From a virus: DNA of 64,000 bases. Shown one piece after another: positions 1-64,000 of this stretch. The number at the start of each line of letters is the position of its first letter. The stretch's first letter is position 1. The notes under the pieces were generated by a model, which saw nothing but the letters and a program-made list of their open reading frames with translations, was not told the origin of the DNA and did not search any database. The stretch is taken from IMG/VR virus record IMGVR_UViG_3300012642_000011, positions 256,001-320,000 of that record; one strand, 5' to 3'. The position numbers were made by a program, and so were the translations under genes.

Positions 1-156
1 TGGGTTTGTTTCCCTCTGCCGTGCTGATGGAATAAATCTAACACACCAGACGCTCCACGGTCAACCCGAAACGGCAGATTCGAGGAACTTTTTCTTGATG
101 TGCAGGGACGCTCCACTATGGCGACAAGTGAGAGTAAGAATCAGTTGCACATTCAA

Positions 157-165
157 GGGGACACA
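157..165 (+). repeat. GGGGACACA intergenic motif (one of about 75, all on the + strand)
   Basis: Exact 9-mer followed by an A/T-rich tail. Confidence 0.8.
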
Positions 166-202
166 GGATTCGTATTTTATAGTGACGCTGGATACACAAA
201 GC

Positions 203-236
203 CGCCCCAGCGATCATCGTGACCACTGGGGCGGCG
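203..236 (-). terminator. GC-rich hairpin (GCCGCCCCAG...CTGGGGCGGC) at the stop of 246..413
   Basis: 10-bp perfect stem. Confidence 0.5.
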
Positions 237-245
237 AGGTGGATC

Positions 246-413
246 ACCAACCGGCGTTGATCGCCTGTCGCTTGTTGGCGGAGCGGGTGCCCTTGCGCGA
301 CTTCACCGTGTGGCGCTGGGCGGCGGAGGAACGTCGCAGTTCCATCATCGCGTCGTAGCAGGCGCGGTTGCCGTTGTTGGCCGCGTTCTTGATCTTCTTG
401 TTCTTCGCCATGA
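246..413 (-). CDS. small basic protein, 55 aa (MAKNKKIKNAANNGNRACYDAMMELRRSS...)
   Basis: Manual translation. Below the 60-aa ORF-track cutoff. RBS CTCAAGGAGAGAAC 7 nt before ATG, conserved promoter/leader upstream (414-500), GC hairpin 203-236 at stop. Confidence 0.5.
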
Positions 414-597
414 TGTTCTCTCCTTGAGAGTTGTGGGGTTTGGCTCTTCCTCGCCCCTGTTGTCTCCTACTCTACACGATGAGACGCTCCATGTCAAATC
501 ATTCTCGGAACTTCTTTGGTTGAGGAGAAGACGTAGCGTTTATTGCGCTCTGGGGGTTCAGTGCGTGCTTCTGTCACATGCTGACGGGGCAACTTGA

Positions 598-606
598 GGG
601 GACACA
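598..606 (+). repeat. GGGGACACA intergenic motif
   Basis: GGGGACACAATGATAC. Downstream of a leftward gene. Confidence 0.8.
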
Positions 607-671
607 ATGATACTGCATTGTCAAACAACAAGCCCGACACCCTGATGAGTGCCGGGCTTGTTGTTGTGGAT

Positions 672-938
672 TCAGAGCAGGCCCATGAGCATGTAGTTCT
701 CGATGTGGCGGCGCACGTTGAGCGCGTGCTTCAGATCGTTTCGCGCGGCCTCATGGTCGAACCCCACGCTCATTGCGAGCATGCCGTAGAACGTGCGGAT
801 GACATCATTGACGTGCCCCAGCATCTCGTTCATCTGCTTGACCGTGAGATTATCGAGGATGCTGGTGGCGTCCTCATCATCGGTGAAAGAACCGAGATCG
901 TAGTAGGCGTTCAAGTTCTCGCCGGTCAGTTGCATCAT
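672..938 (-). CDS. hypothetical protein 88 aa
   Basis: ORF track. RBS GAAGGAGAGTCACC before ATGATG. Hairpin terminator 620-660 downstream. Confidence 0.6.
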   Translation of the reverse strand: MMQLTGENLNAYYDLGSFTDDEDATSILDNLTVKQMNEMLGHVNDVIRTFYGMLAMSVGFDHEAARNDLKHALNVRRHIENYMLMGLL

Positions 939-1124
939 GGTGACTCTCCTTCAGAGTGAGTGAAGACTTGGTTGTCTTCGTTGTTGATTTGATCCTAAGG
1001 CATGCAGCATCAGCGCGTCAAGCCCAGTGGAAGATTTTTTCGCATGATGTTACAAGCGGCAGGAGAGGGACACAAGTCTGCTGTATGCCGCATTCTCCCT
1101 GAAGTCAGAGATCTGCGGTACCTA

Positions 1125-1457
1125 TCACTTGATGGTCACGATGAAATCGCTTCCGTACTCATCCTTGCCCTCAAGCGTCTTAGCGTCGATCAGGCCGTTG
1201 AACTCCTTGATGCGATCAACGATGCCTGCCGTGCCCTTGCTTTCAGGCGTCCATCCCAGATGCAGACGGAGAGCGGGCGCATAGTCCTCGTAGTCAACGA
1301 AGACCGTGATCCCCTCGTGCTCCTTCTCGAACTGACGAGCAATCTGCTCAATGTTGGAATGCTTCGCCTTACCAGCACCGATGCTGTAGCCATAGGCGTC
1401 CAGTCGGGCACCACTCAGCGTAGGGGTGTTCTGGGTGAAGTGGTAGTGGTAGGACAT
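1125..1457 (-). CDS. hypothetical protein 110 aa
   Basis: ORF track. Conserved leader CTCAAGGAGAGAAAC-ATG and conserved promoter (1512-1541). Confidence 0.7.
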   Translation of the reverse strand: MSYHYHFTQNTPTLSGARLDAYGYSIGAGKAKHSNIEQIARQFEKEHEGITVFVDYEDYAPALRLHLGWTPESKGTAGIVDRIKEFNGLIDAKTLEGKDEYGSDFIVTIK

Positions 1458-1511
1458 GTTTCTCTCCTTGAGAGTTGTGGTCTTGGGCTGTTCCCTCGAC
1501 CTGATGAATTA

Positions 1512-1541
1512 ATAGTACCACAGGGGACGCTCCATACGCAA
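1512..1541 (-). promoter_or_regulatory. conserved early-type promoter (TTGCGT - aTGGAGCGTCCCCtgtgg - TACTAT) followed by the conserved leader
   Basis: -10 reverse complement at 1512-1517, -35 at 1536-1541. Invariant spacer TGGAGCGTCCCC. Same architecture seen at about 40 sites. Confidence 0.7.
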
Positions 1542-1704
1542 CACGATTGAGGGAACTTGCAGAATTGTTCAAAAGGGACACAGAAGTAGCGCTGGGTGGG
1601 ATTGGAAGCATGCAGCCCCGTTATCCTCTGGGTAGGGAGGATAGCGGAGCATGTGTAAGAGGGGAGTAGTGGTCAATACGCTTGACCACTACTTCCCCCT
1701 CCAT

Positions 1705-2019
1705 TCACTTGCGTCGCGCAATGCCAACGAGGAACTCGCTGAACTTTGTGCTCGTGAACACGGAATCATAGGGCACGTACAGCGTCCGATGAACGTCGTC
1801 GTACACACGGAAACGTACCTCAATGTCGTAGTTACGGTACGATACATCAACGGATGCGATGTAGCCCACGTGCCACGCCAGATCACCCATAACCACAGCG
1901 CGCAGATGCTCAACGTCCATTCGGTGCAGCGGGACGTACTCGCCCACAAGACACTCCGTGCAACCGCAGTCGTAGGGGTTGATAGCGTAAACTTTCCTGC
2001 CGTCAATGACCTTCGCCAT
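1705..2019 (-). CDS. hypothetical protein 104 aa (start trimmed to MAKVIDGRK...)
   Basis: ORF 1705..2103 trimmed to the ATG after the conserved leader CACAAGGAGCACATC. Hairpin 1662-1701 at the stop. Confidence 0.7.
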   Translation of the reverse strand: MAKVIDGRKVYAINPYDCGCTECLVGEYVPLHRMDVEHLRAVVMGDLAWHVGYIASVDVSYRNYDIEVRFRVYDDVHRTLYVPYDSVFTSTKFSEFLVGIARRK

Positions 2020-2153
2020 GATGTGCTCCTTGTGGAGTCGTGGTCTTGGGCTGTTCCCTCGACCTGATGACTCTACTCTACCACAAGGGACGCTCCATGT
2101 CAAAATGATTCAGAGCGTGGTGCCACCGTCAGGATGTGGCGCAGAAAGCATAA

Positions 2154-2978: not shown

Positions 2979-3497
2979 ATGAGCACGAAGAAATCAAAGC
3001 GACTGGCGTACATTCTGCGTCACGATCCGGCATCTGCGAACACCACTGCCAGTGAGCAGGGTTGGGTCAGTGTGTCGGATATCATGCGTGCTCTCAACGT
3101 CACCATGTCTCAGTTGCAGGTCATCGTGAGCGAGGACAACAAGGGTCGCTACGAGTTCTCTGCAGACAATGAGATGATCAGAGCAACTCAGGGCCACTCC
3201 TACCCTGTCAACTTGGGATGGGAGAGCGTGCTTCCTCCTGCTATCCTCTACCACGGCACGGCTACGCGATTCGTTGAGTCCATCATGCGTGAGGGTCTGG
3301 TCAAGGGGTCGCGTCAGTGGGTCCACCTGTCTGCTGACACTGCTACAGCCTCGATGGTTGGTTCTCGTCATGGCGAGTTGGTCATCCTTGAGGTGGCAGC
3401 ATCTCGCATGGCAGCGGATGGTCGCTCCTTCTACCGCTCTTCCAACGGCGTGTGGATGGCTGAACATGTCCCTGTGGAGTACATCACCACCCTCTGA
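2979..3497 (+). CDS. kptA: RNA 2'-phosphotransferase, Tpt1/KptA family
   Basis: Motifs LAYILRHDP, RATQGHS, LYHGTA, VHLSAD...RHG..VIL, NGVWM match the KptA/Tpt1 signature along the whole length. Promoter TTGATT-17-TACGAT upstream. Confidence 0.9.
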   Translation: MSTKKSKRLAYILRHDPASANTTASEQGWVSVSDIMRALNVTMSQLQVIVSEDNKGRYEFSADNEMIRATQGHSYPVNLGWESVLPPAILYHGTATRFVESIMREGLVKGSRQWVHLSADTATASMVGSRHGELVILEVAASRMAADGRSFYRSSNGVWMAEHVPVEYITTL

Positions 3498-3632: not shown

Positions 3633-3637
3633 GGAGG

Positions 3638-3940
3638 TCACAGACCAGAGAGTTCAGACTTGACAGAACACATCCACGACGGGGTGATCTCGTTGATGCT
3701 CTCAACCATGAACTCCTTCTCGTTGAAGGCGTTGATGAAGTTGATCACGTTGTTGAACTTGAAGTAGGTGATGTAGTCATCACCAGAGAGTTCGCCGTTC
3801 TCGATCTTCACGGTCAGACCATTCACCTCGAAGGTGAAGTAGAAGACAGTCATCTCACCAGTGTGCATGCAGAAGTCACAGGTGCCCCAAGTGATGTCCT
3901 CCTGGCTGCTGTCAACGTTCACGATCTTCACGGGGTACAT
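3638..3940 (-). CDS. hypothetical protein 100 aa
   Basis: ORF track. Conserved promoter/leader 3941-4020. Confidence 0.7.
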   Translation of the reverse strand: MYPVKIVNVDSSQEDITWGTCDFCMHTGEMTVFYFTFEVNGLTVKIENGELSGDDYITYFKFNNVINFINAFNEKEFMVESINEITPSWMCSVKSELSGL

Positions 3941-4060
3941 GGTATCTCCTTGTGGAGTAATGGTCTCGGGCTGTTCCCTCGACCTGATGAATCAATAGTA
4001 GCACAGGGGACGCTCCATACGCAACTCCACAACGCGAATAATTTGAGTAGAGTCGTAGCC

Positions 4061-4522
4061 TCACCCCATACGGTAGGAGAAAAGCGTCTCGAAACCCTGT
4101 ACGCCCTCATCATCCACTGTCCCACGGCTTACATGAATCCAGTTAAAAGGCTCATTCTCGCCCTCCATGCTTGCCCCTGTCACATGCGGCAGATAGCCGT
4201 CGCCGTGGTGCTCGGGAACAGCAAGGGACGCTCCACTATCGATAGCGGCGCGCAAAAGATGATCGTGCATAGTGCCGATCTGGTTGCTCTTCAAAACTTC
4301 AATGACGTGAATTGCTTCCCCATCGTCCCCCTGAAACACCTGCTCACCTTGATTAGAAGTGATCACAGGGCCAAAATAGAAACAAGCATTCTTTACTCTG
4401 TCAATGAACTTGTTGACCTGATCCTCTGTGTCAACACGGAAGGCAGGCATCAGTGTCAGATGGAAAACAGATCCTTCACCGTGATCAACAATCACATAGA
4501 TCTTCATGTCCTTATTGTGCAT
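4061..4522 (-). CDS. hypothetical protein about 153 aa (start at MHNKDMKIYVIV)
   Basis: ORF 4061..4660 trimmed to an ATG with RBS AAGGAA. Start uncertain, alternative at 4504. Confidence 0.5.
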   Translation of the reverse strand: MHNKDMKIYVIVDHGEGSVFHLTLMPAFRVDTEDQVNKFIDRVKNACFYFGPVITSNQGEQVFQGDDGEAIHVIEVLKSNQIGTMHDHLLRAAIDSGASLAVPEHHGDGYLPHVTGASMEGENEPFNWIHVSRGTVDDEGVQGFETLFSYRMG

Positions 4523-5228: not shown

Positions 5229-5235
5229 CCTCGTA

Positions 5236-5475
5236 TCAGGCGAGGTTATCCGGCAGGTCTCCGGTCTCTCGCAGGGAACGCTTCACCGCCGACTTGGCGT
5301 TACGGATGCCAGAGGCGGACTTGGAAGTGGAGGGGCCGACGAACATGCGACCGTTGATGAGGCGGTAGCGGATGTGACCGGAACCCGTCTTGCCCTCCAC
5401 TTCGCCTAGGTTGTTCTTCACGATCCAATCGTGAAGTTCCTTGGCGATCCCCGTTGCTCCGATTCGCTTCCCCAT
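5236..5475 (-). CDS. hypothetical protein 79 aa
   Basis: ORF trimmed to the ATG after the conserved leader CTCAAGGAGAGATC. Conserved-loop terminator hairpin 5188-5228 downstream. Weak, unverified resemblance to HicA/YcfA-like small proteins. Confidence 0.6.
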   Translation of the reverse strand: MGKRIGATGIAKELHDWIVKNNLGEVEGKTGSGHIRYRLINGRMFVGPSTSKSASGIRNAKSAVKRSLRETGDLPDNLA

Positions 5476-5703
5476 GATCTCTCCTTGAGAGTTGCGGTCT
5501 CGGGCTGTTCCCTCGACCTGATGAATCAATAGTACCACAGGGGACGCTCCATCGTCTACTCCGCAGAGAATTTATTTTCAGCACTCTTGGAGGCAGATGG
5601 ACAAGGGGACACAATAATCGTATCCCTCTTGACTAAGAGGACAGGATACAGTTCGGCCCACCATCCTCCCGTGTGTGGGATTCTGGTGGGCCGAACTGTC
5701 TCA

Positions 5704-5913
5704 TCACGCCTTGACGGACTCCCACGTGTTCTCGGAAGTCTTCACCATGGTCATGTCCGTCACGTCCACACCGATGTGCTTGAGGCGATGCACAGCGGCC
5801 TTCTTGGCGATCTCGCGCGGGACGTAGGGGTAGATTGTGGACTCCACGAACTGAGTGCCGTTGTAGACGGTCACGATGTAGTCAACGCCGTTCTTGGTCA
5901 GGACTGCCTTCAT
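5704..5913 (-). CDS. hypothetical protein 69 aa
   Basis: Conserved leader and promoter (5975-6004). Terminator hairpin 5655-5698. Confidence 0.7.
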   Translation of the reverse strand: MKAVLTKNGVDYIVTVYNGTQFVESTIYPYVPREIAKKAAVHRLKHIGVDVTDMTMVKTSENTWESVKA

Positions 5914-5974
5914 GATGCTCTCTCCTTGAGAGTAGTAGGGATTACTCTGTGTGCTCTCCCTTGCTGATGAATTA

Positions 5975-6004
5975 ATAGTAGCACAGGGGGACGCTCCATG
6001 TCAA
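5975..6004 (-). promoter_or_regulatory. conserved promoter TTGACA-TGGAGCGTCCCCCTGTGC-TACTAT, leader variant 2
   Basis: Perfect -35 and a near-consensus -10 with an 18-nt conserved spacer. Drives 5704..5913. Confidence 0.7.
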
Positions 6005-6183
6005 TCCGAAGAAGCGTCGATCTTCTGCTTTTCGTTTGAGCGATTGCGGATCATCAAGGTGAAAGCATGGAAGAAGCACGCGGTGGCTACAGTGATCCCT
6101 GCCATCAGCGTTCTAATGGGAGAGGGGTCCGTGACAGCAGTGAATACATTAAAGACCGCAAATAATATGATGATATCCTTCAT
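6001..6183 (-). CDS. small hydrophobic (membrane) protein 60 aa
   Basis: RBS AAGGAAATC before ATG. Hydrophobic core. Confidence 0.5.
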   Translation of the reverse strand: MKDIIILFAVFNVFTAVTDPSPIRTLMAGITVATACFFHAFTLMIRNRSNEKQKIDASSD

Positions 6184-7136: not shown

Positions 7137-7255
7137 GATACTCTCCTAAGGTTGAGTGTTTAGGATTGATTACTGGACTTCATAGTGAAACCATAGCAGA
7201 GGGACGTGACAGGTGCAACACGTAATCCCGATTTCGGTGTTGCGCCTGTTGAGAT

Positions 7256-7555: not shown

Positions 7556-7711
7556 TCACTCTGCGATCAGAGCGTACATGAGAGCGTACATCATGACAGC
7601 ACAGAAGAAACTCAGGACAGCGCCCGTCACAACGTCGAAGCCGTTCTGAGTGGTCACGCACATTGCCATGAAGGCAACCATGGCGCTGAAGACAAGGTTG
7701 AAGACTCGCAT
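7556..7711 (-). CDS. small hydrophobic membrane protein 51 aa
   Basis: ORF 7556..7795 trimmed to the ATG after the conserved leader. Very hydrophobic sequence. Confidence 0.5.
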   Translation of the reverse strand: MRVFNLVFSAMVAFMAMCVTTQNGFDVVTGAVLSFFCAVMMYALMYALIAE

Positions 7712-8061
7712 GATGCTCTCCTTGTGGAGTAGTGGTCTTGGGCTGTTCCCTCGACCTGATGGGATCATCCTATCACAGTGGATTGTCCAGTTCAAGTCAG
7801 GGGTCAGGGGTGGTTAGGGGACACAGGAATCATGTGATGCCCATGCAGCAAGATGCAGTGCTACCTCATGCTGATTGGCTCGTGTTCCATGTGAGCGCAT
7901 AGGTGGATGGTGCTACCGTAGAGTTTCCCTGTGTGGCATGGAGAGGAGGTCAAAAGGGTAGTACCATGACTTGCTTGCCGGTGATTGAAAAAGTCTGATG
8001 TATAGTCATTATTTTTACGATATTTATAGGGACACGTATTGTCTTCAGCGCCAATAAAAGA

Positions 8062-8182: not shown

Positions 8183-8488
8183 TCATACGTTCACGATGGT
8201 GGCGTTCTTCATGTGCTGGTCGTAGGCGTCCACGATGATAGCGGCCAGCTGACCACGCTCGCTCACGTCGTAGCCGTTCTTGATGGCCCACGCTCGGATG
8301 GTGGCCGTGGTGGTCTTGGGGCGGTAGGAGGGGTTCTCGTCACGGAACTGGGCCACGAGATCCTTGGACAGACGACCACGGACGCTGACCTCGATGCCCT
8401 TGGACTTGGCCCACTGGCGGATGTCAGCGGCAGCCGAACGGCCAGCGATGAGGGTCTTGTCCTCGTTGTACTTGCGCTTGGTGGTCAT
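8183..8488 (-). CDS. Lsr2-like DNA-binding protein, two tandem C-terminal-type domains
   Basis: Two copies of the Lsr2 C-terminal motif (IRQWAKSKGIEVSVRGRLSKDLVAQF and IRAWAIKNGYDVSERGQLAAIIVDAY) with the RGR AT-hook-like core. Conserved leader/promoter. Confidence 0.75.
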   Translation of the reverse strand: MTTKRKYNEDKTLIAGRSAAADIRQWAKSKGIEVSVRGRLSKDLVAQFRDENPSYRPKTTTATIRAWAIKNGYDVSERGQLAAIIVDAYDQHMKNATIVNV

Positions 8489-8713
8489 GGTCTCTCCTAG
8501 GAGTAGTGGTTGGTGTTGAGATTGGCCCCTGTGGCCTCGCTGTTTGCTCTCAACCTGATGAATCAATAGTAGCACGGGGGACGCTCCATGTGCAACATGT
8601 GCAGCACGAATAATCTCGGGATAGTCGCAGCCCTCTATTGGATCACGTAAACTCGTGATAGTATGCTCACACATACCTATGGGGACACATAACTTGCTGT
8701 AAATAGTCAGGTA

Positions 8714-8762: not shown

Positions 8763-9488
8763 TCAGGTCGCACAATCGTTTCCGGTCAACTTTGCATAAT
8801 CACACACTTGTGCGTTGCCAGACACTTGTGCATTTCCGGCCACAAATGCACAATCGTACACTTGTGCGTTACCGGACACTTGTGCGCTGTCTGTTACTTC
8901 TGCATCGTCAGATACCTGTGTATTACCAGTCACTTGAGCGTTGTCATAAATAAATGCTTCACCGGATACTCGTGCTTTACCAGACACCCGTGCGTTACCT
9001 GCCACGCGCGAGTTGCCATAAATTCGCGTGTTACCAGACACTCGCGCATTATCGTACACCTCTGCGTTGCCATATACTCGTGCGTTGTCATGCACAAGAG
9101 CGTCATCAAACACGTAAGCGTCGCCGGACACACAAGCGCTACCGTACACCGAAGCATTGCCAAATACCCAAGCGTTCTCGAACACTCGCGCGTTGCCGTA
9201 AACCCGCGAGTCCTCAGTGACGTATATGTTACCAAGCAACTCTGCGTTATCATACGCCTGAGCGTTCTCGTACACCCGAGCGTTATCAGTCACGTGCGCA
9301 TTGCCGTACACCTTCGCCTCATCATTGACCCATGCATTATCTGAGAGATTGTCCATGCTCTCCACATAACCGCCCAGATCCCCAGATTTCACCTCATGAT
9401 CGGGCAGGTCGCGTGTGGCTCGAATACGGTGGAGCGTTCGACCGTTGTAGTGAATCGTTTCATCTGTCAGTTCGTAATTCTTATTCAT
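8763..9488 (-). CDS. hexapeptide-repeat (beta-helix-like) protein with conserved N-terminal domain, paralog 1 of 6
   Basis: N-terminus MNKNYELTDETIHYNGRTLHRIRATRDLP...GDLGG, then about 30 consecutive V-x-[GDE]-[ND]-A-x hexapeptides. RBS CAAGGAGAAATC. Confidence 0.8.
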   Translation of the reverse strand: MNKNYELTDETIHYNGRTLHRIRATRDLPDHEVKSGDLGGYVESMDNLSDNAWVNDEAKVYGNAHVTDNARVYENAQAYDNAELLGNIYVTEDSRVYGNARVFENAWVFGNASVYGSACVSGDAYVFDDALVHDNARVYGNAEVYDNARVSGNTRIYGNSRVAGNARVSGKARVSGEAFIYDNAQVTGNTQVSDDAEVTDSAQVSGNAQVYDCAFVAGNAQVSGNAQVCDYAKLTGNDCAT

Positions 9489-9502: not shown

Positions 9503-10258
9503 TTATTTAGTCCAGCGTGCGACACGGGCGCGGCACTGATCAATGACGGATTGGTACTCGGGACGTGCGTCACGAATGATTTCAGGGTCAGTGGTTTCAA
9601 CCCATGAATCCGAGTCGCAGAGGATCTGGTGATCATCAAGAGTGCCTGACTTGCAACCGATATGGAGAACATGATCATCCGTGGTGCGGTGCAGGGTCCA
9701 ATTGAATTGCCGATTGGTGCAGAGTGTGCCGATCATAATATGCTTTTCTTCAGCCACTCGCGCGTACCCAAACACGTGTGCGTTACCAAAAACTCGCGCG
9801 TACCCAAACACCCGTGCGTTACCACACACCCGTGCCCAATTGTACACTTGTGCGTCATCGGACACTTGTGCGTTGTCTGTTACTTCTGCATTCTCAAATA
9901 TGTGTGCCTTACCAGCCACTTGAGCTTTGTCATAAATAAATGCGTCATCGGACACTAGTGCGTCCCCGAACACTTGTGCGTCCCCGAACACTTGTGCGTT
10001 ACCGGACACGCGTGCGTTGCCATATACACGCGCGTCATCGTACACCAAAGCGTTCCCTGACACTCGTGCGTCATCGTACACCATCGCCTCATCAGCGACC
10101 CATGCGCTATCGGAGAGGTTGTCCAGATGTTCCACGAAGCCGCCCAGATCGCCGGGCTTTACAGCGTGGTAGGGTAGTTCTCGTGTTGCACGAATGCGGT
10201 GGAGCGTTCGACCGTCGTAGTGAATCGTTTCATCTGTCAGTTCGAAATGCTTATTCAT
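9503..10258 (-). CDS. hexapeptide-repeat protein paralog 2 (non-repeat C-terminal extension)
   Basis: Same N-terminal domain and hexapeptide repeats. Own promoter TTGCGC-18-TAGGGT. Only 14 nt from the downstream paralog. Confidence 0.8.
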   Translation of the reverse strand: MNKHFELTDETIHYDGRTLHRIRATRELPYHAVKPGDLGGFVEHLDNLSDSAWVADEAMVYDDARVSGNALVYDDARVYGNARVSGNAQVFGDAQVFGDALVSDDAFIYDKAQVAGKAHIFENAEVTDNAQVSDDAQVYNWARVCGNARVFGYARVFGNAHVFGYARVAEEKHIMIGTLCTNRQFNWTLHRTTDDHVLHIGCKSGTLDDHQILCDSDSWVETTDPEIIRDARPEYQSVIDQCRARVARWTK

Positions 10259-10467
10259 GGCGTCTCCTTGAAAATGGTAGGGATTATCTTATCAACGATC
10301 CTATGCTGCCCTTACCCTATCATATGGGACGCTCTATGCGCAACCTATTTCTTGTACTAATTGGGCTATATTGCGACAAGTGATGCCGAAGTTTACACAA
10401 GGGGACACAGTAGCGAAAACAGAGAACGGACAAGGCGACAGTCGATGCCACCTTGTCCGTTCTCTGA

Positions 10468-10779: not shown

Positions 10780-11022
10780 AATCTCTCCTTGAGAGTGGTA
10801 AGGGTCGCTCTGTGTTGCTCTCCCTTGCTGATGAGTCAATAGTAACACGGGGGACGCTCCATGCGCAACCTGACAGCAGAAATAATCTAGGGAGGCTCAC
10901 AACCTCTCGATTGGATCACTTCAATTCGTGATAGTATGCTCACACATACCTATGGGGACACATAACTTGCTGTAAACAGTCAAGTAGCACAGTAGGGATA
11001 CAACTACTGTGCTACTTGGGTT

Positions 11023-53050: not shown

Positions 53051-53195
53051 GTTCTCTCCTTGAGAGTGGTGGTCTTGGGCGGTTCCCTTGACCTGATGCT
53101 CTTACTCTACCACGGGGGACGCTCTACGCGCAAGTGAAAGATTGTGGCCCGCTGATCTCTGAGTCAGCGGGCCACAATCTTTCGTGCTCTTGGGA

Positions 53196-53642
53196 TCAAT
53201 CTGAGTAATACCAAGAGATATCTTCTTCGATCTCGATACGGTAAGCGCCCTCAGAAATGATCAGATTAAGGCCGTGTTCCTTGAGAAAACTCTTCGGAAT
53301 GCCAATCACCTCTTCGAGCGCATCAAGCGCAATGTCAGTGAGGAGATCAGTGATGTGAATCACAACTGCCTTGTGAAGACGGTTACGATTGGTCACCTTG
53401 GTTACGCTGTCATCGTACTGGTAACCAACGCTATCTGAGACAGACTCCACGTAATCCTTGAACTTGTCTTTGTTGGATTTAAGAGCCATCTGAGTGAAGT
53501 GGTACTGGAAAGTTTTACCATTATCGATGCGATCCCAGATATCGTGAGGGTCATCGAACAGATCAGGGAACTGTTCATTCACCTTCTTCTCAAAGATGCC
53601 GTAGGCAGCATCGGACTCATTCTGGTTAATGATGATCTTCAT
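53196..53642 (-). CDS. hypothetical protein 148 aa (paralog pair C)
   Basis: RBS TCAGGGAGAAACATC. N-terminal MKIIINQNESDAAYGIFEKK similar to 53864..54361. Confidence 0.75.
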   Translation of the reverse strand: MKIIINQNESDAAYGIFEKKVNEQFPDLFDDPHDIWDRIDNGKTFQYHFTQMALKSNKDKFKDYVESVSDSVGYQYDDSVTKVTNRNRLHKAVVIHITDLLTDIALDALEEVIGIPKSFLKEHGLNLIISEGAYRIEIEEDISWYYSD

Positions 53643-53863
53643 GATGTTTCTCCCTGAAAGTAAGTGATTCGCTTGAACCTTTACATGACCTTACTACAGT
53701 GGACGCTCCATTGTCAACTCGATTCTCCATATGGATGATGAATCCGTTGTCGTACCCCCTGTACCGTATGTCCCAGTTCTCATTCTTAAGCAAGGGACAC
53801 GGATTATCGTGCAAGCAGATGGGGGACTGACAGGCGCTACCCATCAATCCCCCGTCTTTTCCA

Positions 53864-54361
53864 TTAATCGCGGCAATTACAACCGCAGTAGTGGATGTCA
53901 CGCTCAGCAGTACGCGCCGCGTACTCGATGTCATCGATGTAACTCGGAGCATTCACAAAATCGTTTCCAGAGAACGCGCTTGCCGGAACATCATCACGAC
54001 CCATCGCCTCGAAGAAGGACTCAACAACCATCGTGTCAATCGTCTCATGCATGTGATGCATGTACGCCTTTTTCAGACGGATCGTGCGGCTACGCTTGGA
54101 CTCGCCCGCCTCCTCGATGAAGCCGATCATCTTGGCGCTGGACTCCATCATCTCCTTGAAAGCAGCCTTGTTGGTATCCATGGTGGACATGATGATGTTC
54201 AAGATGTTATTGCGCAAGTCGCAGTCGCAAAAGTACACCATGAAGGACACGCTATCCCTGATCTCATCGAGGTTCCACAGCGCGCCACGCAGGGACTCCA
54301 TCTTCTTCTCGAAGATGTCCATTGCCTTCTTGGTCTCATCGGTGGTAACGAGGATCTTCAT
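53864..54361 (-). CDS. hypothetical protein 165 aa (paralog pair C)
   Basis: RBS CCAAGGAGAGACC. N-terminal MKILVTTDETKKAMDIFEKKM. Confidence 0.75.
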   Translation of the reverse strand: MKILVTTDETKKAMDIFEKKMESLRGALWNLDEIRDSVSFMVYFCDCDLRNNILNIIMSTMDTNKAAFKEMMESSAKMIGFIEEAGESKRSRTIRLKKAYMHHMHETIDTMVVESFFEAMGRDDVPASAFSGNDFVNAPSYIDDIEYAARTAERDIHYCGCNCRD

Positions 54362-54447
54362 GGTCTCTCCTTGGGAGTTATGCTCTCAATTGCTCTGATG
54401 CTCCGATTCTACCATGGGGGACGCTCCATGTGCAAACCATTCCTTCA

Positions 54448-55102: not shown

Positions 55103-55345
55103 TCACCAGCCCAGTTCCTCACGCGCGGCGGAGGAAAGGTACTCGTCACCGCCCATTCCCTCCTCAGCGATGTACACCGCGCCCTCAGCCAGCGCCATGT
55201 CACCAATGGCGTGCTGAATGGGGTAGGAAGGCTGCACAGCAAGGCGAACAGGGGCCTCATACGCCGCGTCCTCGCCGTGCTCTTCCTCGATCTGATCCTT
55301 CAGGGACTGCAGAGTTTCGATCATCTCACCAAGGGTCATTGCCAT
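55103..55345 (-). CDS. hypothetical acidic protein 80 aa
   Basis: Second ATG chosen (RBS TGGAGAAGAAC). Conserved promoter/leader 55358-55440. Confidence 0.7.
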   Translation of the reverse strand: MAMTLGEMIETLQSLKDQIEEEHGEDAAYEAPVRLAVQPSYPIQHAIGDMALAEGAVYIAEEGMGGDEYLSSAAREELGW

Positions 55346-55437
55346 GTTCTTCTCCATTCAAAGTGATGGGGTCAAGTTCTTCTCAACCCCTGTTGATGGT
55401 CCTACTCTACCACGGGGGACGCTCCATCTACAAGAGA

Positions 55438-56370: not shown

Positions 56371-57138
56371 ATGAGCATTTACGAGTGGGAGAGCGGGAAG
56401 ATCGTGCTTCCGACCAAGGACGTTGCGCCCCTGAAGAAGATTCTTCGGGATCAGGTGAACACGTTCCATTCGGATGTTCGCGCCAAGGCTGTGGAGATGC
56501 ACAAGTCTGCAAAGACCACTTCCACTAAGAAGTATGGCGAATTCTTCGGTTTCGACAAGCACTACTATGACGACTCCAAGAACACGATGGTAGAGAACGT
56601 CGCCCGTGACATTCTGAAGGGCATGTGGGAGAACGCGAACGCTGGGCGAGGGACGCTCCATGTTCCCACTGTGGCTGACGTTTCGCGTCATGCTCCCAAG
56701 ATGACGACCAAGGACAATCATTTCCGTGTTCTTGACAATCAGGGTTTTGATGCGGCTCTGATTCACTTCAATGGCCGCATTGTGGAGTGGGCTGTGGAGG
56801 AGAACAACCATGCTGTCGATCATGCGTACAGCGCTCCTCTTGCGCGGTCGCTCTTCAAGTACCTGCATCAGATCGAGTGGACGCGCGGCACTGGTGGTCA
56901 TGGTGTGGGCAACAACGAGATGAATACGGATAGCGATTACGTGGGCGGCGGGGCTAACTACGTTGCCTTCAGTTACGGCCCGCTTGGTGTCGAGGTGCTT
57001 GCACAGGGCGCGCAGATGAGCAAGAAGAAGTACCTCAGCACTCATCTGGACATTGACGAGAAGAAGCACGCTGACAACTCAGGCTACGAGCGCAGTCTGC
57101 CCCTTAACACTCGTCGTCCCTACAACTTCATCTGGTAA
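56371..57138 (+). CDS. hypothetical protein 255 aa
   Basis: RBS CTCAAGGAGAATC. Terminator 57146-57197. Confidence 0.8.
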   Translation: MSIYEWESGKIVLPTKDVAPLKKILRDQVNTFHSDVRAKAVEMHKSAKTTSTKKYGEFFGFDKHYYDDSKNTMVENVARDILKGMWENANAGRGTLHVPTVADVSRHAPKMTTKDNHFRVLDNQGFDAALIHFNGRIVEWAVEENNHAVDHAYSAPLARSLFKYLHQIEWTRGTGGHGVGNNEMNTDSDYVGGGANYVAFSYGPLGVEVLAQGAQMSKKKYLSTHLDIDEKKHADNSGYERSLPLNTRRPYNFIW

Positions 57139-58710: not shown

Positions 58711-59325
58711 ATGAAGAAGACGATCATGCTCGTAGACATTGATGGCACGCTTGCCATCAACAATACGGCAGAGAGCAAGCCTCTCAACGGATTCAATAGC
58801 GAATGGGCAGAGATGACCATTTCCCGACTGGATCACCCTGAGATGTTCACAGGCGCAGTAGAGCAGTTGGCAAGCATCAATCGCGTCCTTGCCGACGATG
58901 CCAAGATCGAGGTGGCTGTGGACCTGACCATGCTCTCTGCCTTCTCGCAGATCGCTTCCCGCCCCCATGTGGAGTGTAAGTGGCTGACCATGTGGGAAGA
59001 CAAGGCTGTGGACTTGTTCGCTCCGTTCACGGGACTTGGTGAGGAATGGGACGTGCTGAAGAAGGGGGACGCTCCAAGAGATTGGAAACTGAGCGTTCTG
59101 GATCAGGTGGCTGGTAAGAACCCCGATACTCAGATCATCTTCCTTGACGATGACGTAGCCGTGCTCCCCTCTCATTTCGCCGCTTTGGAGGAGATCGTGG
59201 AGTCCCGTGAGAACGTGTTCGTGGTGGTTCCTACTCCTCACGTGGGCTTGACGGCTGTAGAGGTAGGATGGATTGGTTCTGTCGTGGACAATCCGAATAT
59301 GGTGAATGCACTGCTGTGTGAATGA
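58711..59325 (+). CDS. HAD-superfamily phosphatase-like protein
   Basis: Motif I MLVDIDGTLA. Later IIFLDDD. Start uncertain (track 58669, weak RBS). Confidence 0.65.
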   Translation: MKKTIMLVDIDGTLAINNTAESKPLNGFNSEWAEMTISRLDHPEMFTGAVEQLASINRVLADDAKIEVAVDLTMLSAFSQIASRPHVECKWLTMWEDKAVDLFAPFTGLGEEWDVLKKGDAPRDWKLSVLDQVAGKNPDTQIIFLDDDVAVLPSHFAALEEIVESRENVFVVVPTPHVGLTAVEVGWIGSVVDNPNMVNALLCE

Positions 59326-59757: not shown

Positions 59758-59845
59758 TTTTCTCTCCCTTGAAAGATGTGGTGTTGCTTTCAGTAGTAAG
59801 CATACCTCATGCAAGGGTGCTTTGCAAGCAGAGGGGACGCTCCAT

Positions 59846-60637: not shown

Positions 60638-60817
60638 TTTCTCTCCTGTGGGAATCGGATCTTTACTAACAGGATCTACTATACACCAGATCACTGCACT
60701 TAACAACCTATAGGGACGCTCCGCATGAAGACGAATCACTATCGTCATGATGGTTGACAATATGGAGCCTATGTGAGATATTGAAAGTGTCCTGACAACG
60801 AAAGCAAAGGGAAGACC

Positions 60818-61093: not shown

Positions 61094-61102
61094 GGGGACA
61101 CA
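61094..61102 (+). repeat. GGGGACACA intergenic motif
   Basis: GGGGACACAATATTCAG. Confidence 0.8.
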
Positions 61103-61170
61103 ATATTCAGAACTAAAGCAAAAAGGAGAGGGAGACCATGATGCTATGGTCTCCCTCTCGCGTTTAGCGA

Positions 61171-61830
61171 TCACACAGCGGTCAGAAGGGACTGCACAAC
61201 GTCAGCGTTCGTGATCACGGGGGCAGGGGTGACAGGGAAGGGCTTCACCTTAGTCTTGGTGTGTGCCGACTGGTAGGCGAGGATCACCTGATTACGCAGC
61301 CGCCCAGTGTCAGCCACGGTGTACCCGTTGTCCTTGGCCCATGCGCGAATCTTGGCGGCGTTACGGTTCTTCCCCTTCTTGCTGGGCGACTTGATGAAGC
61401 GATCATCCTTGAAACCGTAAGCCTGAGCGTAGGCGATCAAGAGATCATTGGACAGGCGACCACGATCAGCGGTGGTGTAACCGTTCTCCTTGCCCCATTC
61501 ACGAATCAGAACGGAGTCAGGGACATGCTTGGTCTTGGTGGTCTTGACCTTCTCTTCCTTGGTGTTCAGGACATGGATGCGACCACCAGTGATGCTCTCG
61601 TCAACGGGGCAACCGTGAGCGACGTAGGACTCGACCACGGAGCGGTGCAGACGGCCACGGGTGCCGGTCTGGATACCCTGAGACTTGGCCCATGCCCGCA
61701 CCTGAACGGCGTTGTACGCGACGCCCTCCTTGTCTGCATACGTGGTGATCTGGGAGATCAGGTTGTGGAACTTGGCATCCACCTTCTCATCGGAAATGGA
61801 GTAGGTGGTGTTGTTGATGGTGATGTTCAC
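61171..61830 (-). CDS. Lsr2-like protein with three tandem DNA-binding domains (GTG start)
   Basis: Three repeats: VQVRAWAKSQGIQTGTRGRL, LIREWGKENGYTTADRGRL, AKIRAWAKDNGYTVADTGRL. RBS AAAGGATCATC before GTG. Terminator 61118-61160. Confidence 0.8.
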   Translation of the reverse strand: MNITINNTTYSISDEKVDAKFHNLISQITTYADKEGVAYNAVQVRAWAKSQGIQTGTRGRLHRSVVESYVAHGCPVDESITGGRIHVLNTKEEKVKTTKTKHVPDSVLIREWGKENGYTTADRGRLSNDLLIAYAQAYGFKDDRFIKSPSKKGKNRNAAKIRAWAKDNGYTVADTGRLRNQVILAYQSAHTKTKVKPFPVTPAPVITNADVVQSLLTAV

Positions 61831-61995
61831 GATGATCCTTTGTTCGTGTGCTCTGTTGTGTACTGATCCCATCCTATAACACCGGAGAAGTCAATGCAAC
61901 ATGTGATTCCATTGGTGCGTCATCTGTCGTCATATTTAATGGGGACACAGAATGAGAGCATGCGAGCACTTGGTGAGAGTGCTTGCTCATGGTGG

Positions 61996-62157
61996 TTACG
62001 TGTTGGCAACTACCATCATGCGCCCCACAAGGAATGCCCCGATGATAGCGGAGACAATAAGCATCATGGGGTTGAAGGCATTCAGATAGAAAAATGCGGC
62101 CACACCGATGGCGTTCAAGGTGACGAAGAGAATGTAAAGGAGGGAAATAAATCGCAT
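61996..62157 (-). CDS. small membrane protein 53 aa
   Basis: ORF trimmed to the ATG with RBS AAGAAAGATCATC. Confidence 0.5.
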   Translation of the reverse strand: MRFISLLYILFVTLNAIGVAAFFYLNAFNPMMLIVSAIIGAFLVGRMMVVANT

Positions 62158-62248
62158 GATGATCTTTCTTACAAGCAATGGAAGTGTACTTCCACAGTAT
62201 AGCACAAAACTCCCCTCCGTGTACAAACGGAGGGGAGTTTTTAGCGGG

Positions 62249-62476
62249 TCAGTGATCTGCGATCTGCATTACCACGGCCCAATGGTCGCCAGCATCCTGT
62301 GCTGACCACGACTGGACGTACTGGTTGAGCTTTCGCTTGGGGAGGTTGGGGATCTGGTTGTTGGTGAACATGTCAGTGGCAATCTTTGCTGCCTCATGCT
62401 TGTTCGCCACGTCCATGGGCGAACCGTTCTTTCGAATGGTCTTGCCCACGTTGTGCTTGATGATGATGTTCGTCAT
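62249..62476 (-). CDS. hypothetical protein 75 aa
   Basis: RBS AAAGGAGGACATC. Hairpin 62207-62244. Confidence 0.75.
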   Translation of the reverse strand: MTNIIIKHNVGKTIRKNGSPMDVANKHEAAKIATDMFTNNQIPNLPKRKLNQYVQSWSAQDAGDHWAVVMQIADH

Positions 62477-62622
62477 GATGTCCTCCTTTGACTTCTATAT
62501 TATACCATGTGGACGCTCCATACACAAGTGCCGACTCCACATGTATAATCTTGCAATGGTGTACATATAACGAGAAAGAGTGATCCCCCTACACCATTCA
62601 GGCGAGGGGGATCACTCAGGAC

Positions 62623-62970
62623 TCACTTGTTGTGAGCGGCGCGGTAACGCTTCACGGTGTCACGGGACAGACGGCCACGCTTGCCCTTCTCGATCAGGCC
62701 CTTCTCCTCAGCCCACGCGCGGATCTCGGCGGCGGAGTCGGAGACCACAACGGTATCCTTATCGGTGAACTGGTACTTCTTGCGGATCTTGTTCTTCAGG
62801 ATCTTCTCGGCGTTCTCAGCCACGAACTTGGGGTCCTGGACCTTGGTGGCGGACTTGGCGTTCAGCGGGACGATGTAGATACCCTTGTTCGGGATCAGCA
62901 CCTCCACGGGCTTGGCACCCATCTGCTTGGTGATCGCGTCCTGCAGGAACTTCTTCTGGGTCTTGGTCAT
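62623..62970 (-). CDS. lsr2: Lsr2-like nucleoid-associated protein
   Basis: N-terminus [37 protein letters not shown]-terminus AAEIRAWAEEKGLIEKGKRGRLSRDTVKRYRAAHNK. Paralog of 18996..19337. RBS GAAAGGAAGCATC. Confidence 0.85.
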   Translation of the reverse strand: MTKTQKKFLQDAITKQMGAKPVEVLIPNKGIYIVPLNAKSATKVQDPKFVAENAEKILKNKIRKKYQFTDKDTVVVSDSAAEIRAWAEEKGLIEKGKRGRLSRDTVKRYRAAHNK

Positions 62971-63683
62971 GATGCTTCCTTTCAAAGTGATCATTGTGAT
63001 CAGGATGTGTGTTCTTCTGTCTTGCTGGTATCCATGTTGCCACATTATTTCTTCCGTGTCAACTATGGATCTGCATTTTTCTCAAGGTTCCTTCTGCTTC
63101 TCTGTCGGCTTCCGTTGCCTTGATGAGTACATCATGGCACACCTTTAATCCCCGTGTCAACACTTTTGCCAAAATTTTCTCAAAAATCCTCTGACATGGG
63201 TGTTTACAAGAGAATCAGGGGGCTGAACAAAGGGACGCTCCACGAACTCACACCTGCTGCCTGTTGTAATAATTCTTATATAAGCCTTATATAAGCAAAA
63301 AGAAAGCATACAGGGACGCTCCACATACATAGCCTACAGGTCTGCAATCCTTCCTCTGCGACAAGAGAAGAGCGTTCAGAACACCTCTGCATGGGGACGC
63401 TCCACACATGCGGGATGAGGAGGTCACATCAGTGTGCTTGCTGGACACGCTGTACGCCGTTCTGAGGGCATGAAGGAGTGGCAAGCCATCAATGTTCGTA
63501 CCAGACCTAGAAACGCCCCACAGGGGCACACAGCCTCTCGTGGAAGGGCGTACAGCCGCCTAAGGTGACTTGTGAATCACTCCACGGTCATGGTTTCCCT
63601 GTAGGGACACAGAATGACGAAACATAGACAAAGCACCCTGTGTTCTCCCCGTCAAGAGAGCACAGGGTGCTTCAATGTGTCTA

Positions 63684-64000
63684 TCAGAAATCAGCCTGAT
63701 TCAGAACAGCCTTGACGTTGGCCCGATCCTTCTCAAAAGTGAGAGTACGATCAGCGTTATCGATCAGGGACTGGATCACGTCCTGCTTGGTTTCGTACCC
63801 GTCCTCGATCTCATCCTCGTCCACGTCGTCAAAGAACGTCCACGCATAACCGTTCTTGGTGCTCAGGATAGCATAGCGGCCCATGCCGTCGAAATCGTGC
63901 TCCCACAGAAGAGTGCCCTCAATCTGCTCCCACTTGTGCTTGCGCAGAGTATCCATGACAGGCGTGTAGAGCGCGGTGAAGGCATCCCCGTCAATGACCT
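63684..64000 (-). CDS. hypothetical protein, possibly 5'-truncated at the window edge
   Basis: ORF track gives 63684..63956. The frame stays open upstream to the window end and no RBS precedes the 63956 ATG. Terminator 63625-63680. Confidence 0.5.
   Translation of the reverse strand, partial: VIDGDAFTALYTPVMDTLRKHKWEQIEGTLLWEHDFDGMGRYAILSTKNGYAWTFFDDVDEDEIEDGYETKQDVIQSLIDNADRTLTFEKDRANVKAVLNQADF

Follow-up and report, generated by a model that had tools for sequence, protein, structure and literature searches.

The 64,000-nucleotide stretch of viral DNA studied here (positions 256,001 to 320,000 of IMG/VR virus record IMGVR_UViG_3300012642_000011; 'the window' below denotes this whole stretch) raises a simple question: why does a nearly invariant sequence sit between the -35 and -10 elements of many of its promoters? 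An initial annotation, made from the letters of the window, had described about 40 near-identical promoters sharing this spacer and a conserved leader. The motif copies are real: the spacer sequence TGGAGCGTCCCC occurs 42 times in the window at ≤1 mismatch, compared with a mean of 0.37 and a maximum of 3 in dinucleotide-preserving shuffles. All 42 matches except one lie on the minus strand. The core of the motif, GGAGCGTCCC (hereafter A), is found in 37 exact copies on the minus strand and none on the plus strand; tolerating one mismatch raises these numbers to 54 and 2. The density of A in the window is about 1 per 1.2 kb. The motif strings were found in no paper of the literature searched.

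The number of promoters is smaller than the number of motif copies. A occupies a fixed promoter position in only 23-25 minus-strand copies and one plus-strand copy (17908), so that there are about 24 promoters of the A type and not about 40. Their elements follow in a fixed order, namely TTGnnn, 1-2 nt, GGAGCGTCC, 6-8 nt ending in TRTGn, and TAnnnT; about half of all A copies thus lie at -30 to -19 of a promoter. The A-type promoters are concentrated at 0-22 kb and 47-62 kb. A logo of the aligned copies, a step suggested by the initial annotation, gives A a higher information content (1.4-2.0 bits at each position) than the -35 element, where the TTG carries 0.9-1.5 bits and the rest of the hexamer about 0.2-0.3 bits. 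The TTG is present at 17-18 bp spacing in nearly all copies; the remainder of the hexamer varies, and the region is unconstrained between strains (see below). The TRTG/TGn upstream of the -10 element carries 1.3-1.6 bits, and the TA and final T of the -10 are invariant in the 26 aligned copies by construction, being the selection criterion. The initial annotation was right that most genes possess an individual sigma-70/SigA-like promoter; these promoters have an extended -10 (TGnTAnnnT). A conserved YATCA at the expected position may mark the transcription start.

The initial annotation had pointed to a MerR-like geometry. This is not supported, as the spacers are 17-18 bp rather than 19-20 bp long, the dyad in A consists of GGA/TCC only (3+3 bp), and the 37:0 orientation implies that the site is read asymmetrically.

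About 110 genes (78 minus-strand, 32 plus-strand) cover 66% of the window; the gene models are our own calls from codon usage and Shine-Dalgarno sequences, and agree with the calls of the sequence collection where both overlap. About 28 A copies (≤1 mismatch) lie outside promoters, nine of them in minus-strand genes, seven in plus-strand genes and the rest in intergenic DNA. Exact copies number 5 in minus-strand genes (0.03 expected) and 3, antisense, in plus-strand genes (0.01 expected). The in-gene copies at ≤1 mismatch occupy all three reading frames and both relative orientations, which places the signal in the DNA or in minus-sense RNA, not in a peptide; a peptide-motif reading of A was rejected on these grounds. 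Both copies in the FemX gene happen to encode G-A-S-L, one of them in a loop that is variable among homologues. For several non-promoter copies, such as 37320, 40322, 50740, 59834 and 60713, the -35 of an unrelated promoter follows 10-50 nt downstream, and at 17871, 23875, 40322 and 63394 a perfect A has been kept in promoter-like remnants in which the -10 has decayed. The copies that the initial annotation had termed degenerate all exist (46-57, 104-115, 17870, 23874, 31288, 63231, 63312 and 63393). Its suggestion that the 11-mer may itself be a binding site fits the data best, because half of the copies are outside promoters. The stand-alone and in-gene copies are listed here, all on the minus strand.

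63394-63403 (-): stand-alone A, intergenic, first of three at 81-bp spacing, -10 decayed
63313-63322 (-): stand-alone A, intergenic
63232-63241 (-): stand-alone A, intergenic, upstream of a different promoter
60713-60722 (-): stand-alone A; the -35 of a plain promoter (TTGTTA-N17-TATAGT) follows directly downstream
59834-59843 (-): stand-alone A upstream of a plain promoter
59066-59075 (-): A antisense within plus-strand gene 58711-59325
56650-56659 (-): A antisense within plus-strand gene 56371-57138
52384-52393 (-): A antisense within plus-strand gene 52136-52720
51413-51422 (-): stand-alone A, upstream of the plus-strand promoter of gene 51510 and oriented opposite to it
51102-51111 (-): stand-alone A, in a doubtful 57-aa open reading frame (ORF) or intergenic
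50740-50749 (-): stand-alone A; a plain promoter has its -35 about 25 nt downstream
42430-42439 (-): A within minus-strand gene 42188-42628, conserved in strain contig L204
40322-40331 (-): stand-alone A upstream of a plain promoter, own -10 decayed (TAGAGA)
37320-37329 (-): stand-alone A, conserved in L204; the RNA-ligase promoter has its -35 about 25 nt downstream
31289-31298 (-): stand-alone A, in opposite orientation upstream of plus-strand promoter 31336
21631-21640 (-): A within the FemX gene, encodes G-A-S-L
21145-21154 (-): A within the FemX gene, encodes G-A-S-L in the homologue-variable loop
20151-20160 (-): stand-alone A, intergenic
17871-17880 (-): stand-alone A, decayed -10 (TAGACC), back-to-back with plus-strand cassette 17900
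4225-4234 (-): A within minus-strand gene 4061-4522
105-114 (-): stand-alone A, intergenic, 50 nt after a B copy (see below)

The orientation of A does not depend on the genes around it. None of the copies in or beside plus-strand genes is flipped (0/7 inside such genes and 0 beside their promoters, save the cassette at 17908), and the orientation therefore belongs to the DNA strand and not to the local gene. The one plus-strand copy in a promoter, at 17908 (TGAAGCGTCCCC), belongs to an inverted duplicate of the cassette at 19423. A is a short asymmetric DNA element under selection of its own and, apart from such exceptions, always on one DNA strand.

Comparison with related strains provides the evidence for selection. 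Most contigs carrying the phage are identical, and diverged strain contigs were also found. Two of these are L204 (13 kb, about 92% identical) and L206 (6.4 kb, 97-99%); another five (L295, L297, L298, L299 and L300; 87-98% identical) were used to count segregating sites. Among the five, 315/4693 ordinary intergenic positions (6.7%) and 292/10018 coding positions (2.9%) vary. In A the figure is 1/135 (0.7%; P=0.0009 against the intergenic rate), far too little for a neutral spacer, in line with the initial annotation, and in non-promoter copies of A it is 0/45. The -10 element (1/60, 1.7%; P=0.082 against the intergenic rate), the spacer between A and the -10 (1/70, 1.4%; P=0.047) and the leader (13/530, 2.5%; P=8e-6 against the intergenic rate) also vary little. 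The -35 region shows no constraint (7/70, 10%; P=0.9). In L204, exact A copies are identical at 44/45 positions, and in L206 A copies are identical at 27/27. By these counts, A, the -10 element and the leader are under purifying selection and the -35 is not.

A is not alone. Counting of k-mers revealed a second, more abundant word, B, with the logo ATnYTGTGTCCCYW. The string TGTGTCCC occurs 71:0 and GTGTCCC 76:0 on the minus versus the plus strand of the window, and the density of B is about 1 per 0.9 kb. Not one of the 71 copies lies inside a called gene (P=3e-34), and 68/106 intergenic gaps contain B, about 65 nt past the upstream stop codon and 105-135 nt before the next start codon. It has the same place between terminator and promoter in minus-minus and in plus-plus gene pairs, so that its position follows the transcription units and its orientation does not. 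B is also conserved between strains: 1/152 positions vary among the five (0.7%; P=0.0003 against the intergenic rate), and in L204 the B cores are identical at 110/111 aligned positions. We rejected B as a plus-strand ribosome-binding site or -35 element, there being nothing conserved 17 bp downstream, and as the promoter of a phage polymerase, for which its orientation is wrong at the 32 plus-strand genes. A third word, C (TGTCACGTCCC(C)), has 11 minus-strand copies and none on the plus strand. It is found in intergenic DNA and inside genes of both orientations and, at 7208, in a promoter spacer where A normally sits. C reads like B with a 3-nt insertion. All three words share GTCCC(C), as is apparent from their reverse complements GGGGAC-ACA, GGGGAC-GTG-ACA and GGGGAC-GCT-CCA, and GTCCC itself is minus-rich (166:28 between the strands). 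The strand lock of A, B and C spans at least 84 kb regardless of gene orientation, with the words on the same strand for at least 9-10 kb past both window ends, with one exception. Examples of B and all copies of C are as follows.

63604-63611, 61942-61949, 32095-32102, 17190-17197, 1575-1582 (-): B, examples
52602-52612, 49114-49124, 45658-45668, 33244-33254, 29003-29013, 27610-27620 (-): C
25076-25086, 20591-20601, 20044-20054, 16154-16164, 7201-7211 (-): C

The genes of the window are small, and most of them have a promoter, leader, Shine-Dalgarno sequence and terminator of their own. The typical minus-strand unit begins after an ORF stop with a T-run hairpin and continues with B, 30-55 nt, the A promoter, YATCA, the leader, AAGGAGA and ATG. 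The initial annotation had quoted a conserved, structured 55-nt leader in two variants. Both variants exist as quoted and the leader is conserved; its length is actually 44-77 nt, typically 53-64 nt. About 22-24 genes have one of the two. A covariance-model search located 12 window copies of the variant-1 hairpin (GGUC-GA-GGG-AACAG-CCC-AA-GACC), and variant 2 (AGGGA-16 nt-UCCCU) with its derivatives accounts for about 10-12 copies. Both end in ACUCYC, 2-5 nt and GGAG(AG). In the DNA this box, ACTCYC-N2-5-GGAG(AG), lies 3-12 nt before the ATG, with hairpin 1 upstream. All tested leader copies are predicted to fold into a 5'-proximal stem-loop and a weak hairpin that pairs CUCUC or CUCC with the Shine-Dalgarno sequence.

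Covariation analysis across copies and strains agrees with the 5' stem-loop that the initial annotation had drawn, in that compensatory changes are seen. The 12 distinct window copies of the variant-1 hairpin are 94% paired, and in two pairs both partners have changed, from G:C to A:U and to C:G. Their covariation score is 0.184, versus 0.103 for shuffles, and 1/500 shuffles reached it. When 27 distinct copies from all strains are aligned, pairing is 94.5%, there are five compensatory cells, and the score is reached by 0/500 shuffles and also exceeds all slid controls. The variant-2 hairpin is 82% paired, three pairs are changed on both sides, and 3/500 shuffles reach its score. The stem-loop is thus a reasonably supported prediction. 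A tetramer complementary to the Shine-Dalgarno sequence lies ≤14 nt upstream of GGAG in 29/76 genes, compared with 12% of random 14-mers. The second hairpin, the one predicted to pair with the Shine-Dalgarno sequence, is plausible but weak. The A promoters of the window and their leaders are given below.

62474-62527 (-): A promoter (TTGTGT / TGGAGCGTCCAC / TGgTATAAT), short leader, start of gene 62249-62476
55343-55433 (-): A promoter, variant-2-like leader (hairpin GGGGUUGAG..CUUGACCCC), gene start
54359-54435 (-): A promoter, diverged leader (ACTCCC anti-Shine-Dalgarno box), gene start
53640-53717 (-): A promoter (TTGACA, TGGAGCGTCCAC, TAAGGT), gene start
53048-53133 (-): A promoter (TAGAGCGTCCCC), leader variant 1, gene start
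49760-49845 (-): A promoter, diverged variant-1 leader (re-registered GGUC..GACC hairpin), gene start
47004-47098 (-): A promoter, leader variant 2 with compensatory AGGAA:UUCCU stem, gene start
29911-30004 (-): A promoter, variant-2-like leader (GGGAA:UUCCC), gene start
22183-22275 (-): A promoter, leader variant 2; its L206 orthologue has a converted patch of -10 and discriminator
19335-19431 (-): A promoter, leader variant 2; the type of the patch found in L206
17213-17312 (-): A promoter, no ORF, 18-bp terminator hairpin and U-run
17036-17129 (-): A promoter, leader variant 2, gene start
13036-13124 (-): A promoter (GGAGCGTCT), diverged variant-2 leader, start of a beta-solenoid paralogue
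10777-10868 (-): A promoter, leader variant 2, gene start
10256-10343 (-): A promoter (TAGAGCGTCCC), diverged variant-2 leader, start of a beta-solenoid gene
8486-8595 (-): A promoter, expanded 77-nt leader (outer GUUGAGA:UCUCAAC stem and inner hairpin), start of an Lsr2-like gene
5911-6005 (-): A promoter, leader variant 2, gene start
5473-5558 (-): A promoter (poor -35, TAGACG), leader variant 1, gene start
3938-4024 (-): A promoter, leader variant 1, gene start
2017-2104 (-): A promoter, leader variant 1, start of gene MAKVIDGRK; in L295 the same gene and leader have a promoter without A
1455-1541 (-): A promoter, leader variant 1, gene start
409-498 (-): A promoter (GGAGCGTCT), variant-2-like leader (GGGG:CCCC), gene start
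1-64 (-): A promoter (TTGACC, GGAGCGTCT, TAGATT), leader extending past the window start
17900-17995 (+): the only plus-strand A promoter (TGAAGCGTCCCC), leader variant 2, plus-strand gene start

The unit at 17213-17312 has a perfect 18-bp hairpin within about 25 nt of its A promoter (-29.5 kcal/mol, z = -4.5) and is a candidate for a ~70-nt RNA or an orphaned promoter-terminator pair.

The same leaders also occur behind promoters in which A is decayed or absent:

47753-47844 (-): promoter with decayed A (TGGATCTTCCC), variant-1 leader with compensatory A:U pair
30548-30633 (-): promoter with decayed A (GAAACGTCCC), variant-1-like leader (GGUU..GACC, GGA:UCC)
7709-7795 (-): promoter with decayed A (TGGACAATCCAC), leader variant 1
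24842-24929 (+): promoter without A (TTGACA-N17-TGtAATGAT type), leader variant 1
31336-31424 (+): promoter without A, leader variant 1
44117-44167 (+): diverged variant-1 hairpin (GGUCAG..CUGACC, compensatory C:G pair) before a plus-strand gene

An almost identical variant-1 leader thus stands behind promoters at 24842 and 31336 that have another core (TTGACA-N17, TGnAATGAT) and no A. Likewise, the MAKVIDGRK gene (window 1705-2019) has an A-type promoter in the window and, in L295, a plain TTGACA-N17-TAGGGT promoter followed by the same leader. Promoter and leader are separable modules, and A is not required for the combination of promoter, leader and gene. In view of these three cases, neither the specialised sigma factor proposed in the initial annotation nor an obligatory promoter element is supported. 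Plus-strand genes have a promoter family of their own, which combines TTGACA-N17 with the extended -10 TG(T/C/A)AATGAT, in no case contains A, and may be a separate temporal class:

24842-24870, 31336-31365, 33468-33496, about 43380-43410, about 44090-44115 (+): plus-strand promoter family

Many of the terminators are alike in sequence and shape, the 3' arm ending in CTCTCCC followed by TnCTTTTT, and for this reason they also look like copies of one module:

50145-50175, 48885-48915, 61115-61145, 17380-17410 (-): shared-sequence terminators, examples

The strain contigs contain several rearrangements in which these cassettes are involved. L295, L298 and L299 have two extra genes (~1 kb), each with its own B, promoter and variant-1 leader, and a copy of one leader sequence (L202 8871-8922 in the reference strain) stands at either end of this insertion. 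In L204, a 1,075-bp deletion of two genes has its junction at the TGTTGA of a -35 element. The L206 orthologue of promoter 22267 has its own flanks and its own leader end, and between them a patch of the 19423-type cassette that covers the -10, the discriminator and the start of the hairpin and leaves A untouched; this patch is a short gene-conversion tract. With insertion, deletion and conversion junctions all at repeats, the cassettes emerge as recombination substrates by which genes are gained, lost and given new promoters. The cassettes are kept alike both by purifying selection and by gene conversion between copies. The initial annotation had missed this role of the cassettes as recombination junctions, together with the gene-independent strand lock, the in-gene copies and the two companion motifs. 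A further polymorphism is an IS605-family OrfB/TnpB gene (L202 15856-17329, about 5-6.4 kb beyond window position 1), which is present in the reference strain and absent from L297, an insertion polymorphism inside the phage.

We tentatively favour the view that A is an autonomous polar protein-binding site, similar to an operator or stoperator, embedded in the modular promoters of an accessory-gene region that is built from cassettes. Nearly every small gene is a transcription unit of its own, consisting of terminator, B, host-type SigA promoter, a leader of 45-75 nt, a strong Shine-Dalgarno sequence and ORF. A putative sequence-specific protein, presumably encoded by the phage outside the window, would bind A asymmetrically and probably as a monomer. 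Bound between the -35 and the extended -10 it would occlude RNA polymerase, so that some two dozen promoters could be switched off, or on, jointly. Bound elsewhere it might form a polar roadblock against polymerases that travel in the minus direction, the dominant one, in the manner of the stoperators of Cluster A phages. Plus-strand genes, whose promoters belong to the TGnAATGAT family without A, would escape this control. The leader RNA would begin about 4-7 nt before the conserved stem-loop and end in an ACUCYC box able to pair with the GGAG(AG) of the Shine-Dalgarno sequence; most likely it standardises mRNA stability and translation initiation, and an RNase or a translational repressor could have it as a shared target.

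Several points weigh against an operator-like role. Among the 110 window proteins, Pfam and PHROG scans detected no helix-turn-helix or sigma domain and only four Lsr2-like proteins, and there is no lysogeny function, repressor or integrase among them. Stoperators follow the local direction of transcription and A does not (0/7 flipped in plus-strand genes), so that the roadblock idea must assume an action on antisense or read-through transcription. B is just as strand-locked and stands upstream of promoters of both orientations, which points to a process that reads the DNA strand. The combination of an unconstrained -35 and an invariant A fits a positive promoter element equally well. With regard to the data, the strain contigs behind the counts of varying positions share ancestry and are not independent samples, and the alignment of 27 variant-1 copies had been fitted to the hairpin model.

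The alternative that survives best, possible though somewhat unlikely in our estimation, sees in A, B and C signals specific to one DNA strand, whose reader would be some machine with a single direction of travel along the DNA instead of the promoter apparatus. Such signals could be lagging-strand priming sites, KOPS- or Chi-like signals for a translocase or recombination nuclease, or sites of nicking or modification. T7-type primases start at GTC, and A, B and C, besides their common GTCCC(C) core, all contain G-Y-GTC. In favour are the absolute strand lock whatever the gene orientation (37:0 for A, 76:0 for GTGTCCC, 11:0 for TGTCACGTCCC), the A copies within ORFs in all frames, sense and antisense, and the depletion of GTCCC on the other strand (28 vs 166). 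Escape from head-to-head-dependent Type III/ISP restriction may reinforce a one-sided orientation; EcoP15I sites in T7 are uniformly oriented. The words are also more evenly spaced than random sites (coefficient of variation 0.62 vs 0.98; largest gap 1.56 kb vs 2.5 kb), but the regular gene size largely accounts for this. The presence of A in promoter spacers would be historical, A having been carried along as the promoter cassette multiplied. Against this, A stands at one exact position in ~24 promoters and C takes the same spacer position at 7208, and the 10-14 conserved positions go far beyond the needs of a primase or a Chi-type signal. Moreover, the cumulative GC skew is flat. B, finally, is never in genes (0/71, P=3e-34) and has a fixed place relative to terminator and promoter; being intergenic and so placed in both gene orientations, it is tied to the boundaries of transcription units.

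There is also a broader reading, which we regard as doubtful. The three words, with about 140 sites per 64 kb between them, would form a genome-wide, strand-polar punctuation code read by a one-way machine. In this equally doubtful scheme, each transcription unit would carry one or more sites, on one strand whatever the direction of the gene. The machine, no less speculatively, might be the replisome or primase, a DNA translocase, or polymerases that are blocked one way, and the code would coordinate or insulate about a hundred cassettes. We know of no phage genome organisation of this kind.

We consider it unlikely that A is a positive promoter element, to which an activator or a sigma-remodelling factor would bind at about -25 in place of the -35 contact, and which would define a temporal class of promoters. 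The MotA box of T4 and the '-26 element' of PafBC (sigma adaptation in actinobacteria) are analogues, in that a conserved element lies just upstream of an intact -10 and the -35 is weak. A is indeed invariant and at a fixed distance from the -10 in promoters, the -35 is poorly conserved in the genome and unconstrained between strains (7/70 vs the 6.7% background), and the clusters of A promoters at 0-22 kb and 47-62 kb resemble a regulon. However, the PafBC and MotA elements are confined to promoters, whereas half of the A copies are elsewhere, with no -10 at the right distance and equally conserved (0/45 segregating), some of them within ORFs. Extended -10 promoters can in any case do without a -35. 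The same gene and leader are found with a promoter lacking A, which makes A dispensable, and the strand lock in regions of plus-strand genes would be left unexplained.

Two other promoter classes were rejected. A sigma-54 reading (-24/-12) fails because TGGAGC-N5-CTGT has no GC at -12 and half of the copies lack the downstream part; to our knowledge, Actinobacteria also lack RpoN. A reading of the extracytoplasmic function type, in which CGTC would be the -10, fails for want of any conserved sequence 16-17 bp before it.

Very improbable is the idea that A has no separate function and that the spacers are identical as recent cassette copies homogenised by gene conversion: such conversion is directly visible in L206 and cassettes are recombination junctions, but the L206 patch altered the -10 and discriminator and not A. 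Conservation of A also exceeds that of the -35 and equals that of the -10, and A persists within ORFs and in promoters that have decayed and is oriented 37:0.

How do the proposed operator-like site and the cassettes compare with known systems? The closest parallel to the cassettes is offered by the promoter-early stem-loop (PeSL) cassettes of T4-like phages (PMC2839356, PMC4122927). There, short composite repeats of terminator and promoter flank many small ORFan genes in plastic regions, and indels and replacements between close relatives break inside the repeats, as they do here. Our case differs in its unrelated lineage and actinobacterial host, in the long conserved 5' untranslated region in two variants that the cassette adds, and in the strand-locked words A and B, which the cassette contains and which are also found outside cassettes.

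The operator and stoperator sites of Cluster A mycobacteriophages (L5, TipsytheTRex) are the best precedent for asymmetric sites in actinophages (PMC9283540). They too are asymmetric words of 10-13 bp in dozens of copies of uniform orientation, located in promoters and short intergenic spaces, in an actinobacterial host with host RNA polymerase. The density here is similar or higher, in a genome about six times larger. The differences are that the orientation of A does not follow local transcription, that A also occurs within ORFs, that there are three related words instead of one, and that a repressor or lysogeny module is not seen among the 110 window proteins.

The leader recalls the start-associated sequences (SAS/ESAS) of Cluster K mycobacteriophages and Cluster EF Microbacterium phages (PMC3203893, PMC7302621). 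There, a conserved box over the ribosome-binding site lies 3-8 nt before the ATG, an imperfect inverted repeat with a variable spacer lies upstream of the box, and the elements belong to a subset of non-structural genes of one orientation, with a function that is not known. The sequences are unrelated (ACTCYCAAGGAGAG here vs GGGATAGGAGCCC; there is no relation to GGGAAAGGACCCC either). Here the compensatory changes fit an RNA hairpin, whereas the Cluster K authors found none (PMC3203893), and the element is fused to a promoter. The 17-bp palindrome of Cluster O (34 copies) and the 18-bp asymmetric motif of Cluster EC (12 copies) are likewise lineage-specific, short, mostly intergenic and well conserved, and their function is not known (PMC4351075, PMC7302621); in contrast, the words described here have far higher copy numbers, an absolute strand lock and, in the case of A, a place between -35 and -10. 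As far as we found, no compared system combines such a copy number with an absolute strand lock across both gene orientations.

Mobile regulatory cassettes and a repeated asymmetric site are known kinds of element; the strand-locked system of three words is the truly unusual part. What had been an invariant spacer becomes an independent strand-locked word which, with its two sibling words, makes up about 140 sites over the 64 kb. Should these prove to be operators or polar roadblocks, stoperator-type silencing would extend beyond small temperate Cluster A phages; should replication or translocation machinery read them, they would represent a new type of signal in phage genomes. The strain contigs give strain-to-strain evidence of the turnover of accessory genes in a giant phage, with cassettes that serve as expression parts and as recombination handles, and carry the PeSL idea beyond T4-like phages into actinophages. 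For practical use, the cassettes offer compact promoter and leader parts for Actinobacteria that are already validated by nature.

The window belongs to a jumbo phage, since its RNA ligase gene is found with 100% DNA identity on contigs from many samples, the longest of which has 332,269 bp. The window corresponds to roughly positions 59.7-123.7 kb of this contig, k141_11150 of ENA ERZ27289831, in reversed orientation. Relatives were sought in several ways. Megablast of 20 kb of the window gave no match in the phage collection at the DNA level. In IMG/VR, the scans with the RNA ligase, two motif patterns and the leader pattern gave no relative, with nothing or single chance matches, and a metagenome scan with the loose pattern TGGAGCGTCCCN{2,6}TGNTA gave, among the matches listed, chance cases with one match each. 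RNA-ligase homologues at 58-69% identity belong to low-GC phages that are unrelated, or to bacteria, and these lack the motifs; a region of Arthrobacter phage Racecar has no words comparable to A, B or C. A bacterial contig with type I-E cas genes (L011) contains no tandem-repeat array, hence no CRISPR (clustered regularly interspaced short palindromic repeat) array for comparison with the phage.

The host is inferred to be an actinobacterium, probably Micrococcaceae-like, judging from the Lsr2-like genes, FemX and the relatives of the ligase. At least four Lsr2-like DNA-binding proteins, a family of actinobacterial nucleoid silencers, are encoded in or next to the window, and they are the only recognisable DNA-binding proteins of the region:

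8183-8488, 61171-61830, 62623-62970 (-): Lsr2-like genes in the window
L202 10989-11486: Lsr2-like gene next to the window

FemX (lipid II:glycine glycyltransferase), encoded at 20675-21832 (-), is an unusual cargo and the best clue to the host. Its best named relatives are from Micrococcus, Citricoccus, Yaniella and Nesterenkonia (42-54% identity), with Propionibacteriales at ~40%. Among phages, the ligase is matched best by Arthrobacter and Microbacterium phages with a size of about 190 kb (~40% identity). The phage is not a T4-like myovirus: the ligase relatives are actinophages, and the Lsr2-like proteins and FemX indicate an actinobacterial host.

Most of the ~110 genes have no family match in the Pfam and PHROG scans. 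Recognisable among the others is an RNA-repair set, comprising an RNA ligase, a Tpt1 2'-phosphotransferase, a metallophosphoesterase, HAD_SAK_2 and a cyclic-phosphate-processing REC domain (cREC_REC); a GmrSD/HNH nuclease is encoded as well. This toolkit and the GmrSD/HNH nuclease suggest counter-defence against anticodon nucleases of the host:

36225-37229 (-), 2979-3497 (+), 45765-46595 (+), 52136-52720 (+), 38574-39416 (-): RNA-repair (cREC_REC apart) and GmrSD/HNH genes

The window itself has no tRNA genes and no Rfam match at the gathering score over its whole length. Eight clustered tRNA genes (Val, Thr, His, Arg, Leu, Asn, Glu, Leu) lie just past window position 64000, at L203 1-2600, on the strand of most genes. 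There are also six paralogous minus-strand genes for beta-solenoid proteins of the YdcK type (three of them at 8763-9488, 9503-10258 and 13269-14084). Repeats in their coding sequence give rise to the frequent words GTGTCCGGTAACGC and CACTCGCGC, which have no relation to the regulatory motifs.

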